Source of the DNA: Callorhinchus milii
Taxonomy: Eukaryota
NCBI RefSeq assembly: GCF_018977255.1
Contig: NW_024704742.1
Location: forward strand, 68,016,001-68,080,000
Reading direction: 5' to 3'
DNA: 64,000 nucleotides
The notes beneath the pieces are model-generated. The model did no database searches. It was given only the letters and a program-made list of their open reading frames with translations, and was not told where the DNA came from. Position 1 is the first letter of the stretch; every line of letters starts with the position of its first letter. A program made the position numbers and the translations under genes. Shown one piece after another: positions 35,163-42,240 of the stretch.

Positions 35163-36045
35163 TCAAATTCCTAAGATAGATTCATCCCAAAGCTTTTCCT
35201 CTTCTGTTCTCGTATCTACCTCCTCCCTCTTCTTTTTCTCCTTTTTATGTTTCGGTTTTGCGTCCTCTTTTTCTATGCATGGATCCTCTTTCACCTTTCT
35301 CTCTTTCTTTCCATGTTTTAACTTTTCTTCTTTTCCTGATTCCAACTCCTCTTTATCTCTTTTCTCCGCTTTATGCTTTTGCTGATCTTCACTTTGAACC
35401 CGTTCCACCTCTTCCTGGTTGCTCTCCTTCCTGTAGACCTGACATTCCTCATCTCTTTCAGATTCAGTCTCTTCCGGGTCTCTTCGTTCCCGTCCGTGTT
35501 TCCTCTTTCTCCTTCTTTTGTCTTTTTTGGAGGAACTGCTGCTGTCATCCGAGGTCATTGGTCTGTGATCATCAGCTGATTCCACACTGGAGGGACCTCG
35601 GCTGTCTTCTGGGTAACTGGCCATCATTGGAGGTTGTCTTTCTGTGTAATATTCCATTTGTAAGTCATTGGTTTGCATATAGGTGGTCTTTGTACTGTCA
35701 ATTTCCAAAGACGCCCACTTGGGTGTATGATCATGTACTTGCATTTGGAAATCACATTCCTCTGGGAAAGTGCATGGGTTCAACCCAGGGGTAGTTTCTC
35801 TGCTTTGAGCAATATATTCCAAACCAGGAGTGGGAATAGGGACAGGAGCAGGAGGAGAAGGGGGAGGTCTGACTATAGGTAAGTCCTCAATTTCCTCTTC
35901 CGACCTTTCCTCAGATTTTCTGAAGTATGTCTTTGGAGCAAGGCCTCGCGCTCTCTGAACTTTTATGAAGTCGTCAAGTTCGTCCTGGAAGGAATCGTAC
36001 TTCTTTGACTTTGTATTCAGTACAAGATCAGCAACCTTGTTTTCT
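35163..36045 (-). CDS. KRCC1: KRCC1 last coding exon (KRCC1 domain, Pro-rich linker, Lys/Glu/Arg-rich tail)
   Basis: Acceptor ttgtcatcattacag; open frame of 294 codons to the TGA at 35163. Confidence 0.92.
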
Positions 36046-39000
36046 CTGTAATGATGACAAGAAAGTTTAAAGAGTTTATCTGAAAGTTATATTGATAATA
36101 AATGTTTTCGCCCACAAAATGTATAGTCAATTCACTTTACAGTATATTCTGTGAAGCGCTTTGACACGTCTCAAAGATGTAATAAGGTGCCATATCAAAT
36201 GCAGGGATTATTATTATAATCCTTTCATTATATATGGCTCCTTTTGCATTTTTATCAGGAGGACGTCTCAAAGCGTTTCAGAGGATATAGTCTAAAGTGC
36301 AATGACTGTATTTGTAGGCAAACACAGCAGCCAATTTTCACACAGCAATGTCCTGAAGTTAACCTGAAGGATCAAGTTGTGTGATTAACAGAAAGCAGAG
36401 AGGATTGGTGAATGATTGTTTTTCAGATTGGAGGGAGAAATACATTGTCCCCCAGGGGTCAGTTTGTTCAGTTTGGTAAATAGTGGCACAGCATAAATTT
36501 AAAATATTAAAGAAAGGAAGATTCAAGCCCAATGTCATGGTCTAAGCTCACACTCAAGTGCAGTACTACCCTCAACTCCAGGACCACTGCTGTCCTAACA
36601 GACTGTCTGTCGGATATCAAGTCCTGGATGAGGGCAAATTTCCTACAGTTGAATGTGAATAAGACTGAGGCCCTCCTGATTGGCTCACGCCAGCACGTCA
36701 GGCTCTGGCAGCATCACCCTCCATGGTTGCACACTACAACTCACCGCCAGTCAGGAACCCAGGTGTCTTGTTCGACCCTCAAATGTCTTTTCTTCCACAC
36801 ATCCAAGCCATGACCGGCTCTGCCTTCCCTCACCTCCGTAACATTGCCCGACTCCGCCACTACCTCACCCCTCAGGCCGCTGAAACTCTTGTTCATGCCT
36901 TCATCACCTCCAGGCTGGACTATGCAAATGCCCTGCTTGTCGACCTTCCCAACTCCTCCCTCCACAGGCTGCAGATAATCCAGAACTCTGCAGCCCGTGT
37001 CCTCTCCCGCACCAAACTACGTGACCCCATCTCCCCCACTCTCACCCGACTCCATTGGCTCTCTATCCTTCAGAGGATCCAGTTCAAAATCCTGGTCCTC
37101 ATATACAAAGCCCTCCATGGCCTCCCCCACCCTACTTCTGTGACCTCCTAACCCCCTACCAACCCGCCCGCTCCCTCCGCTCAGCCGGCTCTGGCCTGCT
37201 CCATGTCCCCCGATCCACCCGCCCCACCATTGGTGGGAGAGCCTTCAGCCACTCTGCCCCCAAACTCTGGAATTCCATCTCCTAATCACTCTGCCTCACC
37301 CCCTCCTTAGCCTCCTTCAAGTCCCGCCTCAAGACCCTCCTCTGCGGCCATGCTATCGGTCACCCCCCTTCCCCTCCCCTCCCTTCTCCCCCCCTGACCC
37401 CAGCTCGGGTCTGAAATGCTGTACACTGTCCAACACCTTGGGATGTCCTCCCGACATGAAAGGCACTATACAAATGTAATCTTGTTGTTGTTGTAGGGGA
37501 GCACTGCATTTTCAGAGCTACCTTCTTTTGGGTATTAACCTGATGGTCCCATCTGCCCATTCAGGTGGATGTGTGAGATCAAAAAGAGAACAGAGTTTAT
37601 CCAGTGTTCTTGTTAACAATCCTTAAGATTAATTGGTCATTCACTTTATAGCTGCTTGTGGGACTTTGCTATGAGCAAAATGGCTGGTGTGCTCGGCTAC
37701 AACAACAGCGCTTTGAGATGAACTTTTTTCTTGAACTTTATTCCACCATAACTTCCACCTCATATCACCAAGCTGAACAATGACTGTCACTCAAACCCTA
37801 CCATTAAGATTATATTTACTAATCAATCTGTGCTGAATGTGACTTGGTTGGGGATGAAAAAAATCAGAGAGCTCTTACTTGAGCTGATGTTTATATCCTT
37901 GCTGGTGTGACTGGTACTGTTCAATGGAGTTAAGTGTAATATTGCAGATAGCACATGGATAGTCACCTGTTCCTACTGGGAGAAAACAGTGAGTCACTTG
38001 CAAATACAACTCATTGCTACTTGTCTCCAAATGCCTAAGGCGACAACTCAAATGCAAAATATTACTTTGATAGTATTAAGACAACAACAATTTGCATTTA
38101 TATAGCACCTCTCATGCAGGGGAGTGTCCCAGAGAGCTTGACAGTGGTGGAGCACAACCCTGAGCCAGGGGAGAGGGGAGGTGACCATAGGCACAGTCGA
38201 AGTGGAAGGTCTTCAGAATTGTCCTGAAGATGGGGAAGAAGAGGCAAGGTGGAGGGATTGAGGGAGAGTGTTCCAGAGGATCGGGGTGTAATGGCTGAAA
38301 GAGTGGGCACCGATGGTGGAATGGAAGGCTTGAGGGACAAGCTGGAGGTCAGAGGCAGTCGAGTGGAGGCAACGGGTCGTGGGTTGGGGAGTAAGCAGGT
38401 CGGAGAGGTATGGAGGTACCAAGGCATGAAGGGATTTGAAGATGAGTGAGGATCTTGAAATAGATTTGTATTATATCTGTATTATGTATTACCCAATGAA
38501 TGTTTGCATTCTTGGAATCTAAGCATCCTAAGTAGGTCAGAGGGGTTGTGAAGGAATCAGCCATCTCTTCCACCATTCCTATGATTAAGTGAACTCTCAG
38601 TGGTTTGGCAAGGATACTCTTAAGCATGGTGATTAGCTTCCCTGTGTGTCAACACACCCGGCTGACAAAAATAAATCCCCATACTCTTCTATTGTTTAAA
38701 GAAATACTGCATGTTAATATTCTCATATTCATATTCAAATATCTTCATGCTGCAGGACAACCTACTTCTCTGACCTCCTCATAACCCACTCCTGTGTCCA
38801 CCCTCTATGCTCAGCCTGCTGTGTTTCCCCCTCTGCACCACCATCATTGGCTGAGTCTTCAGTCAATAGATCCCAACCTTTGGAACTCGCTGCCTCTATC
38901 TCTCCATCTCCCCTTCCCTCTCTAACTACCTTCAGATTCCACCTCTAAGACTACATCTTTGACTCTGTCTATAATCACATCCTCCTCCCCTTCTTCCTAT

Positions 39001-42000: not shown

Positions 42001-42235
42001 ACAAGGGTCATCTATAATTTGGGTCAAATTTGTATTACCTACATATAGAAAAAGAAAATAAAGGGATCCAGAAAATAGGTACATGCTCCTCTGTGATGTG
42101 TGAGTCTATATTTGCTATTAAAACCCCTCAACCTACCTCATAATGTGTGGTCCTTTGGACTTCTGAGATTAACATGGCACAGCAAACCCTGCAGTAGTTA
42201 TCAGTGAAAAGTTCGCTCTCATTGTGTCCTCCCAT
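35163..42235 (-). CDS. KRCC1: KRCC1 / zinc finger matrin-type (ZMAT1-like) protein with 4 matrin C2H2 fingers plus Lys-rich coiled-coil C-terminus; join(42235-42137, 41501-41400, 40033-39871, 39436-39155, 37975-37879, 36045-35163), 1626 nt, about 541 aa
   Basis: Phase-consistent GT-AG exons. The last exon has [30 protein letters not shown] and [12 protein letters not shown], matching the KRCC1 N- and C-terminal signatures. Upstream exons encode four Cx2C...H...H fingers. Adjacent to CD8B. Confidence 0.85.
36570..37495 (+). mobile_element. L2 LINE 3' fragment in the last KRCC1 intron
   Basis: [52 protein letters not shown], (gtt)n tail. Confidence 0.9.
37879..37975 (-). CDS. KRCC1: KRCC1 exon with finger 4 ([27 protein letters not shown])
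   Basis: Acceptor tgttttctcccag (CAGTAG tandem acceptor), donor AA|GTAAGA, 97 nt. Confidence 0.9.
38081..38460 (-). mobile_element. L2 LINE 3' end
   Basis: PPYLSDLL...[13 protein letters not shown]; tail ggtgctatataaatgcaaattgttgttgt. Confidence 0.8.
39155..39436 (-). CDS. KRCC1: KRCC1 exon with finger 3 ([28 protein letters not shown])
   Basis: Acceptor attattatttacag (an in-frame alternative gives a start at 39427), donor G|GTGAGC. Confidence 0.9.
39871..40033 (-). CDS. KRCC1: KRCC1 exon with finger 2 ([33 protein letters not shown])
   Basis: Acceptor tacttgtttacag, donor G|GTAAGC, 163 nt. Confidence 0.92.
41256..41613. repeat. Identical 35-bp direct repeat (41256-41290 / 41579-41613)
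   Basis: ctaattccagtgactctagcaattgctctagtcga occurs twice. Confidence 0.92.
41400..41501 (-). CDS. KRCC1: KRCC1 exon [34 protein letters not shown] (finger 1, C-half)
   Basis: Acceptor (T)10aaag, donor CAG|GTAAGA, phase 0-0, 102 nt. Confidence 0.88.
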
Positions 42236-42240
42236 TATAT
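42137..42240 (-). CDS. KRCC1: KRCC1 first coding exon, [33 protein letters not shown] (finger 1, N-half)
   Basis: Acceptor gtttctttgcag at 42241, ATG at 42235, donor GAG|GTAGGT. An upstream exon, probably non-coding, must exist. Confidence 0.85.

Follow-up and report, generated by a model that had tools for sequence, protein, structure and literature searches.

The finger-bearing gene in the 64-kb window of Callorhinchus milii (the whole stretch of DNA that was analysed) is a real, spliced and already annotated gene, and it is likely the single-copy jawed-vertebrate form of the gene from which ZMAT1 and KRCC1 arose by duplication in the placental stem. We assign a probability of about 0.8 to the full explanation, in which this duplication history is combined with a role of the protein as a nuclear RNA-binding adaptor; the history of duplication and finger loss, taken by itself, is held slightly more firmly. 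The shark protein, for its part, is a conventional and annotated member of a known protein type, and its evolutionary novelty is modest.

Six exons were identified on the minus strand (Table 1), all with AG acceptors and the first five with GT donors. When they were joined, a single open frame of 540 amino acids was obtained from the Met at 42235, encoding four fingers and both tail motifs; the original prediction that five finger exons and an 883-nt exon are read in one frame was thus borne out. Splicing was assessed in four sequencing runs (X1 to X4) whose RNA origin was guessed, none being recorded as RNA; the evidence of splicing is their spliced contigs. One public contig (run X2, record 7, 2137 nt) spanned all six exons one after another, its 3′ end lying at 34813, and the junction between 37879 and 36045, which had been proposed as a check, was present at its positions 904/905. 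This join was seen directly in one of the four runs examined. Run X1 held a 97-nt unassigned piece at the join site, exactly the size of exon 5, and runs X3 and X4 contained upstream exon joins only. The finger-4 exon has tandem acceptors at 37975 and 37972, and 37975 was used in the contigs of X2, X3 and X4 as well as in RefSeq isoform X1. In the 590-aa RefSeq model of the gene (Callorhinchus milii "ZMAT1-like"), exon 42137..42240 corresponds to residue 48 onward. The first 47 RefSeq residues had no match in the 64-kb window (tblastn and exact 7-mers), and the X2 contig carries 154 additional 5′ bases; for these reasons, the first coding exon is probably located past position 64000, and the gene appears to run out of the window. 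The gene extent given earlier held for its six exons and not for its start.

Table 1. Features of the finger-plus-tail gene and its left neighbour (window positions)
Feature	Position	Strand	Content	Evidence
Coding exon	42137..42240	-	first part of finger 1	frame model; contig pieces of X2, X3, X4
Coding exon	41400..41501	-	last His of finger 1, linker	frame model; contigs
Coding exon	39871..40033	-	finger 2	Pfam zf-met E 1.1e-8; contigs
Coding exon	39155..39436	-	linker, finger 3	Pfam zf-met E 2.2e-8; PDB 2mkd E 1.2e-12; contigs
Coding exon	37879..37975 (alternative start 37972)	-	finger 4	Pfam zf-met E 3e-7; contigs
Last coding exon, 883 nt	35163..36045	-	end of finger-4 helix, FQDEL helix, disordered middle, K/E/R-rich region, C-terminal LWDESILG, stop	
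3′ UTR	34813..35162	-	AATAAA at 34837-34832	contig end 34813
Left neighbour, CD8-type gene, likely CD8B	3481..10911	-	209-aa open exon model	Pfam V-set E 1.9e-15
CD8-type gene parts	signal 10869-10911, V 9445-9798, hinge 8392-8484, TM 4131-4223, tail from 3525	-	3′ end uncertain	

The window protein carries four C-x2-C-x12-H-x5-H fingers, with a Lys between the two His in each. The uncut pattern occurred three times in the window over all six frames (finger 1 is split by an intron) and in none of 30 base shuffles; intronic chance motifs were rejected as the source of the fingers. The RefSeq protein matched Pfam zf-met in four stretches (E 1.9e-27) and jaz (E 2e-18), and the fingers are accordingly of the matrin/JAZ type (zf-met / zf-C2H2_jaz). 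They are separated by long linkers of 42, 67 and 30 residues, which were of low confidence in the predicted structure. Basic residues between the two His form the dsRNA-contacting motif of JAZ; all 57 full-length single-repeat proteins retain basic residues ahead of the last His in fingers 1 and 4. The tail comprises 292 residues, with one FQDEL unit, basic nuclear-type runs and the C-terminal LWD-S-I-L-G motif. A Pfam search of the tail returned no domain, an Atlas search with it gave no usable match, and none of the fold matches to the FQDEL helix region exceeded Z 4.2. Predicted models for a possible packing of the FQDEL helix against finger 4 reached pTM values of 0.30 and 0.40, and an RVxF-like PP1 motif was absent from all four proteins scanned.

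The next gene downstream, at a distance of about 24 kb and in the same orientation, is of CD8 type, and the original placement of a full four-finger-plus-tail protein beside such a gene is upheld by its V-set match and exon model. The neighbour is likely CD8B, a name taken from its architecture; searches of PDB and Atlas with the Ig domain returned antibodies and generic V-set clusters and no match named CD8 or CD8B. Outside the window, where the SMYD1/FABP1 side would lie, the sources for synteny were published work, names in databases and the sizes of contigs. In humans, KRCC1 is given a place between CD8B and FABP1/SMYD1 (PMC10742694), and marsupial KRCC1 was found on contigs of 445-934 Mb in six species. 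ZMAT1 is among the genes of a placental-only Xq22 interval (PMC3652825), and human Xq22.1-22.2, from GLA to GLRA4, is without counterpart in chicken or opossum (PMC1274310).

Finger-plus-tail proteins were found from sharks to platypus and marsupials, many of them already named KRCC1. The homologue sets consisted of the best 120 of 174, 120 of 268 and 150 of 1066 matches, clustered, and with sets of this kind a second tail-bearing gene may exist in non-placentals. Among the matches listed, all 55 non-placental entries, taken one per species, had two to four fingers, and 41 had four (this choice left out fingerless short isoforms of bilby and opossum); a finger was present in 0 of 33 placental KRCC1 entries, and only placental KRCC1 was fingerless. 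The earlier statement that mammalian KRCC1 has no fingers thus applies to placentals and fails for platypus, echidna and eight marsupial species, in which KRCC1 has them. Similarly, the view that mammalian KRCC1 equals only the last exon is correct for placental KRCC1, to the whole of which exon 35163..36045 is homologous and which uses as its start an internal Met located a few codons inside this exon (Val in the shark), and incorrect for monotremes and marsupials. When the shark tail was used as query, ordinary placental KRCC1 was not retrieved; the platypus tail did retrieve it. The non-placental models named KRCC1 or "ZMAT1-like" (platypus XP_028939290, opossum XP_001379383, caecilian XP_033808090, coelacanth and other sharks) have four fingers, a single FQDEL unit and the same C-terminal motif, with no structural difference from the window gene, and form one clade along the species tree. 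They are orthologues of the window gene that are named KRCC1 or ZMAT1(-like) by species.

In the tail tree (48 rows), placental ZMAT1 and placental KRCC1 were sisters (100/100) next to the marsupials (100/97), and each of the two clades held xenarthrans, afrotherians and boreoeutherians. AU tests, whose groups were chosen after the tail tree was known, rejected KRCC1 with marsupials (p 6e-5) and ZMAT1 with marsupials (p 1.3e-4). Within a species, the KRCC1 and ZMAT1 tails were 62-66% identical, versus 52-55% with opossum. In the finger trees, the window gene and all KRCC1/ZMAT1 rows, among them sauropsid, monotreme and marsupial KRCC1, formed a single clade (98/97; 99/96 under the mixture model), and ZMAT1 was nested among mammalian KRCC1 (100/98 in both models), on a long placental stem of 0.44-0.49. 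Support for ZMAT1 and marsupial KRCC1 specifically as sisters was 97/90 and dropped to 89/79 with the mixture model. These trees indicate that ZMAT1 arose as a sister copy of KRCC1 in placentals rather than as the ancient third paralogue that had been supposed, and "ZMAT1-like" is therefore as valid a name as KRCC1. One-to-one ZMAT1 orthology of the window gene was rejected, and the RefSeq name is not the mislabel that had been anticipated.

ZMAT4 resembles the window protein in having four fingers of the same types and order (45-48% identity), and it was the closest other paralogue in the finger trees rooted on ZNF346. However, it formed a separate clade with its own shark member (99/99; 100/98 under the mixture model), and the tail was absent from every ZMAT4 and ZNF346 row. 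ZMAT4 orthology of the window gene, with its 292-residue tail, was thus ruled out, and ZMAT4 appears to be an older, tail-less paralogue. Placental ZMAT1 (Xq22.1) shares four fingers and a tail with the window protein in its full-length isoforms, but it has three FQDEL units instead of one, and where the window protein retains Lys it carries Glu in finger 1 (65 of 66 matched entries) and Glu or Asp in finger 4 (93 of 94). It lies in an X-linked placental-only neighbourhood (ARMCX, NXF, TCEAL); the left neighbour of the window gene is of CD8 type, and its right side falls outside the window. Placental KRCC1 (human 2p11.2) shares the CD8-linked position and the FQDEL and C-terminal motifs with the window gene, and the horse and shark tails are 37% identical; it has no complete finger in 33 of 33 entries among the matches listed, unlike the window protein, whose four fingers spliced to the tail exclude a placental-type KRCC1.

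According to the proposed history, the gene would have kept an autosomal, CD8-linked position from sharks through to marsupials. Once the marsupials had branched off, a copy of the whole gene would have reached Xq22 (this direction being the presumed one) and become ZMAT1, keeping four fingers, tripling the FQDEL unit of about 88 residues and changing the conserved Lys of fingers 1 and 4 to Glu. The copy beside CD8 would have lost most of its finger exons, with a decayed finger-2 exon kept in some lineages, and its translation from the internal Met in the last exon would have given placental KRCC1; ZMAT4 and ZNF346 would be older paralogues without the tail. The original prediction had instead made ZMAT1, ZMAT4 and KRCC1 old paralogues of a finger-plus-tail ancestor, from which ZMAT4 kept the fingers and mammalian KRCC1 the tail. 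Although ZMAT4 is indeed the nearest other paralogue, and the trees by themselves do not separate tail gain from tail loss, a gain of the tail within the KRCC1/ZMAT1 line is more parsimonious than its loss in ZMAT4 because the ZMAT4 clade has a shark member and no ZMAT4 or ZNF346 row has the tail; the outgroup P0230 also has none, and at least two losses would therefore be needed against one gain. Given also the sister relationship of ZMAT1 and placental KRCC1 (tail tree and AU tests) and the fingers of monotreme and marsupial KRCC1, the reciprocal split is unsupported and we consider it very improbable. It would be similarly far-fetched for ZMAT1 and KRCC1 to be ancient paralogues, one of them lost or hidden in non-placentals, whose tails were made alike by gene conversion in early placentals. 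The use of best matches in the homologue sets, the long ZMAT1 finger stem and the gene conversion documented among other Xq22 genes (PMC1274310) would fit such a course, but the fingers, which placental KRCC1 largely lacks and could hardly have donated, also place ZMAT1 inside mammals, the two genes are on different chromosomes, and the Xq22 interval has no opossum or chicken counterpart.

Relic finger sequence upstream of placental KRCC1, for which a search had been suggested, was found in gene models of bats, pangolin and Peromyscus, whose isoforms keep a decayed homologue of the finger-2 exon. A Phyllostomus isoform was 78% identical to Tasmanian devil finger 2 over 41 aa, with the last His changed to Tyr, and the relic was also present in other bats, pangolin and the rodent. 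Among placental KRCC1 entries with at least 10 upstream residues, only 4/5 matched finger 2, all being gene-model translations. These relics bear on whether placental KRCC1 might be a retrocopy or a last-exon-only copy rather than a decayed whole gene. Its coding sequence does correspond to a single exon, with no more than a short piece joined to it, and the same join could be present in a retrocopy made from an mRNA that had skipped exons. However, bat isoforms occur both with and without the finger-2 piece, and in other KRCC1 models unrelated sequence is read as far as the position of the ancestral acceptor; both observations suggest that an intron is still there; moreover, KRCC1 lies in the CD8-SMYD1 region (PMC10742694), just as the shark gene adjoins a CD8-type gene. 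We thus regard such a copy as highly unlikely. In the literature searched, no paper on the ZMAT1/KRCC1 duplication history was found, and papers naming both genes were not evolutionary by title and abstract. The supplements of PMC5580707, on mammalian duplicates, gave no matches in 20 of 21 files; the large Table S1 may list the pair.

With respect to function, the protein is likely a nuclear adaptor whose fingers would bind double-stranded or structured RNA and whose tail would bind partner proteins. RNA binding is plausible, and dsRNA is slightly favoured as the ligand, judging from sequence likeness. The only PDB sequence matches were the dsRNA binders ZFa and ZNF346 (1zu1, E 1.5e-26; 2mkd, E 1.2e-12), which were also the top fold matches (1zu1, 2mkd and 2mkn; the best Z of 5.4 is within the range of common arrangements), and finger 3 was nearest to finger 3 of ZNF346/JAZ. 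ZNF346/JAZ and Xenopus ZFa share the finger pattern, long linkers and basic residues before the last His with the window protein; they form a separate clade without the tail, and dsRNA binding, established there, is a prediction for the window protein. Under the same history, the shark protein could instead be a DNA-binding transcription regulator. This is unlikely, though deserving some weight: human ZMAT1 was described as such a regulator at SIRT3 from ChIP and reporter data (PMC8988381), mouse Zmat1 was described as a Trim46 repressor (PMC13170258), and the tail has basic nuclear-type runs. But the linkers and the five-residue His spacing are of JAZ type and not those of tandem DNA-reading fingers, the nearest structures are dsRNA binders, direct DNA contact is not demonstrated by ChIP, and fingers 1 and 4 of placental ZMAT1 have Glu where the ancestral form has Lys.

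KRCC1 has been reported to associate with CHK1 and 14-3-3 (PMC9638924). As a speculative and rather doubtful extension, the ancestral protein might carry a checkpoint-modulating tail to dsRNA, and placentals might have split the job, KRCC1 becoming an RNA-independent, tail-only CHK1 modulator and X-linked ZMAT1, with charge-reversed fingers 1 and 4 and a tripled FQDEL helix, shifting to chromatin. If so, human KRCC1 and ZMAT1, studied as unrelated, would be young sisters whose common tail motifs predict common partners and possible redundancy or competition.

The proposed history would settle the orthology of KRCC1 and ZMAT1, two poorly studied cancer-linked human genes. What is called "krcc1" or "zmat1" in fish, frog, bird and marsupial is likely a single gene, co-orthologous to the two human genes; knockouts there would therefore remove both functions, and only placentals could serve as models of fingerless KRCC1. 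Given the identity of their same-species tails, an overlap between KRCC1 and ZMAT1 may be expected in antibodies, interaction motifs and phenotypes. The pair would also provide a dated example of duplication into placental-specific Xq22 with subsequent loss of domains from the parent locus, where a relic exon can still be seen.

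Joining the six exons of the gene under study (table below) gave a single 540-aa open frame, with its Met at 42235 and four C-x2-C-x12-H-x5-H fingers. Across the six frames of the window, the unsplit finger pattern appeared three times; none of 30 base shuffles contained it. Pfam zf-met scored above cut-off for the three fingers encoded by one exon each and below it for the truncated exon of finger 1, and Pfam returned no family for the tail. Four public sequencing runs guessed to be RNA (X1 to X4, with X4 from a second study) were then compared with window positions 33500-44500. 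In this interval, one 2137-nt contig (X2 record 7) contained all six exons in order, with the 37879/36045 join at its positions 904/905, 154 additional 5' bases, and a 3' end at 34813, just past an AATAAA. This join was direct in one of the four runs (X2) and implied in X1; contigs from X3 and X4 showed splicing of the upstream exons. The original observation that finger exons are spliced in frame to the tail exon was borne out by the open frame and the X2 contig. A tandem acceptor (CAG TAG, 37972-37975, minus strand) adds or removes one residue before finger 4, and the contigs used its upstream site. Also, a second AATAAA lies near the stop codon (35100-35105, minus strand), and the X3 and X4 contigs end at 35069 and 35066, respectively, which weakly suggests proximal polyadenylation.

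Exons of the finger-plus-tail gene within the window
Feature	Position	Strand	Remarks
Exon	42137-42240	-	canonical splice sites; truncated finger 1
Exon	41400-41501	-	canonical splice sites
Exon	39871-40033	-	canonical splice sites
Exon	39155-39436	-	canonical splice sites
Exon	37879-37972 (acceptor 37975 in X2, X3, X4 contigs)	-	canonical splice sites
Last exon	35163-36045	-	canonical splice site; FQDEL and LWDESILG motifs

The last exon was 100% identical to the RefSeq protein 'zinc finger matrin-type protein 1-like isoform X1 [Callorhinchus milii]' (590 aa; P0001); therefore, the finger-plus-tail model is already annotated, and the protein type is likewise known. The first 47 residues of P0001 had no tblastn or exact 7-mer match within the window, and the first coding exon is probably located past window position 64000. 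We take KRCC1 and ZMAT1 to belong to one PANTHER family. The gene itself is conventional, and the analysis gave a clean, testable result on its orthology and on gene decay.

Homologues were collected from searches covering the best 120 of 174, 32 of 32, and the best 120 of 268 matches, plus a representative search (best 150 of 1066), and names were looked up for 30 proteins. Among the matches listed, with one entry per species and without the short bilby and opossum isoform models that lack fingers, all 55 non-placental entries (14 cartilaginous fishes, 9 ray-finned fishes, coelacanth, 7 amphibians, 14 sauropsids, 2 monotremes, and 8 marsupials) had two to four fingers, and 41 had four; the C-terminal motif pattern was unmatched in three of the sauropsid entries. 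A four-finger KRCC1 is implicit in public protein names: KRCC1 is already used for platypus, echidna, marsupial, turtle, alligator, caecilian, and one parrot protein, and ZMAT1 or ZMAT1-like for shark, bony fish, quail, and gecko proteins. None of the 33 placental KRCC1 entries among the matches listed (32 named and one hypothetical, after removal of unnamed Logan rows) had fingers. Placental KRCC1 starts at a Met a few codons inside the last exon; this Met is common to monotremes and marsupials and is Val in sharks. Fingerless short models also exist in marsupials (opossum isoform X5, P0471; bilby isoform X7, P0332), and the opossum isoform starts at the same internal Met; such isoforms are possibly the precursor state of placental KRCC1. 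In placental ZMAT1, full-length isoforms carry four fingers, and an ~88-residue FQDEL unit is present three times. Extra partial ZMAT1-like copies, apart from the main ZMAT1, were seen in armadillo (P0133, P0136, P0336; 189.6 Mb contig) and hippopotamus (P0320; 69.7 Mb contig). Bird orthologues P0170, P0285, P0287, and P0291 showed strong divergence, and their FQDEL and C-terminal motifs were eroded, which suggests relaxed constraint on the bird tail.

A tail tree (48 rows, 257 columns, only the last unit being used for ZMAT1) followed the species tree. Placental ZMAT1 (12 rows) and placental KRCC1 (14 rows) were sisters (100/100), and each group contained xenarthrans, afrotherians, and boreoeutherians; marsupials were sister to this pair (100/97), followed by monotremes (99/94). 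In AU tests on 22 rows, with groups chosen after the tail tree was known, marsupials were rejected as partners of KRCC1 (p 6e-5) and of ZMAT1 (p 1.3e-4). Tail identity between KRCC1 and ZMAT1 of the same species was 62-66% (3 pairs), versus 52-55% to opossum and 37-40% to shark. In a finger tree of 37 rows, all KRCC1/ZMAT1 rows formed a clade (98/97) in which cartilaginous fishes, the window gene among them, branched first; ZMAT1 fell within mammals (100/98) as sister to marsupial KRCC1 (97/90), and ZMAT4-type rows, one of them from white shark, were separate (99/99). A mixture-model tree, with 8 rows removed (two long branches, six near-duplicate or partial) and 1 added, gave 99/96, 100/98, 89/79, and 100/98 for these groupings, respectively. 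An FQDEL-type motif was found in 3 of 132 stored proteins with at least three fingers and no C-terminal motif; two were named KRCC1 or ZMAT1 entries and one was unnamed, and none of the three served as a ZMAT4 or ZNF346 row in the trees. Taken together, the original observation stands and its interpretation holds in part: a split did take place, but it was placental and separated ZMAT1 from KRCC1 rather than ZMAT4 from KRCC1. The ZMAT4-type proteins formed two supported subclades, P0164 (white shark XP_041065255) with P0397 (Leptodactylus) and P0173 (lemur) with P0166 (zebrafish), which suggests a hidden fourth paralogue that goes by ZMAT4 in frogs and has no name in sharks.

At least 10 residues upstream of the last exon were present in 5 of the 33 placental KRCC1 entries among the matches listed. 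As judged from gene-model translations rather than genomic alignments, four of these (two bats, pangolin, and Peromyscus) aligned to the finger-2 exon end of marsupial KRCC1 and placental ZMAT1, scoring above all 300 shuffles; the sea lion extension did not align to this exon, and two vole models with long extensions had no finger-2 match. Longer vampire-bat and Phyllostomus isoforms kept the second half of finger 2, with up to 78% identity over 41 residues to Tasmanian devil; the bat relic has Tyr in place of the last His, and the Cys pair is absent from the model.

In 6 marsupial species, the contig carrying KRCC1 measured 445-934 Mb, far more than the marsupial X. KIAA1789 is taken here to be ZMAT1. 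ZMAT1 maps to Xq22.1 (PMC8988381) among GLA, ARMCX, TCEAL6, and BEX genes (PMC3652825), and, according to PMC1274310, neither chicken nor opossum has a counterpart of this 2.3 Mb interval, in which KIAA1789 (~48 kb) adjoins NXF5. The Xq22 cluster has been dated to the placental stem, in passages that do not mention Zmat (PMC7586669). On these data, it is likely that the X-linked copy is derived, and a size of ~48 kb suggests that it arose by DNA-level duplication, introns included. No literature on a placental origin of KRCC1/ZMAT1 was found in a search with little coverage of subscription journals; the available passages of PMC11203038 and PMC3900645 held nothing informative on it, and 20 of 21 supplementary files of PMC5580707, Table S1 excepted, had no KRCC1/ZMAT1 match.

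PDB sequence matches of the window protein were only Xenopus ZFa (E 1.5e-26) and ZNF346 finger 3 (E 1.2e-12), and ZFa was the single Foldseek match at E < 0.001. The AlphaFold model showed four confident fingers, a finger-4 helix (292-309) spanning the exon 5/6 join, a confident FQDEL helix (316-329), and a C-terminal helix (578-588), with disorder elsewhere. Fingers 3-4 compared best with dsRNA-bound JAZ, at a middling score (Z 5.4, rmsd 2.9, 44 residues). ZNF346 and ZMAT3 are described as dsRNA binders (10.64898/2026.06.03.729416; PMC3274543), and human KRCC1 as associating with CHK1 and 14-3-3 in a report whose available text never mentions ZMAT1 (PMC9638924). The window protein is predicted to act as a nuclear adaptor, with fingers that would bind RNA and a tail that would bind partners. 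Against this reading, ZMAT1 has been described as a DNA-binding regulator (PMC8988381; PMC13170258). Basic residues preceding the final His in fingers 1 and 4 were conserved in all 57 full-length single-repeat proteins, whereas placental ZMAT1 (104 entries) had Glu in finger 1 (65 of 66 matched) and Glu or Asp in finger 4 (93 of 94 matched).

The left neighbour, on the same strand, has exons for signal, V-set, hinge, Cys-transmembrane, and short basic tail, open for 209 aa; no database match bore the CD8B name, but it is probably CD8B, judging from its exon architecture and its length, which is close to the 215 aa of catshark CD8 beta (PMC10140343). Elephant shark CD8 genes are in tandem, flanked by RMND5A and FOXI-type genes (PMC10140343), and a published table places human KRCC1 between CD8B and FABP1/SMYD1 (PMC10742694). 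Between the CD8-type gene and the window gene, an uninterrupted frame (29176-29793, plus strand) resembled the WEE2/WEE1 kinase C-lobe (PDB 5vdk, E 2.7e-43; Pkinase) and is likely a processed pseudogene fragment. Regions 20491-23174 and 36500-38480 contained LINE reverse-transcriptase fragments, as judged from motifs in the translations, along with many SINE-like repeats at very high contig depth.
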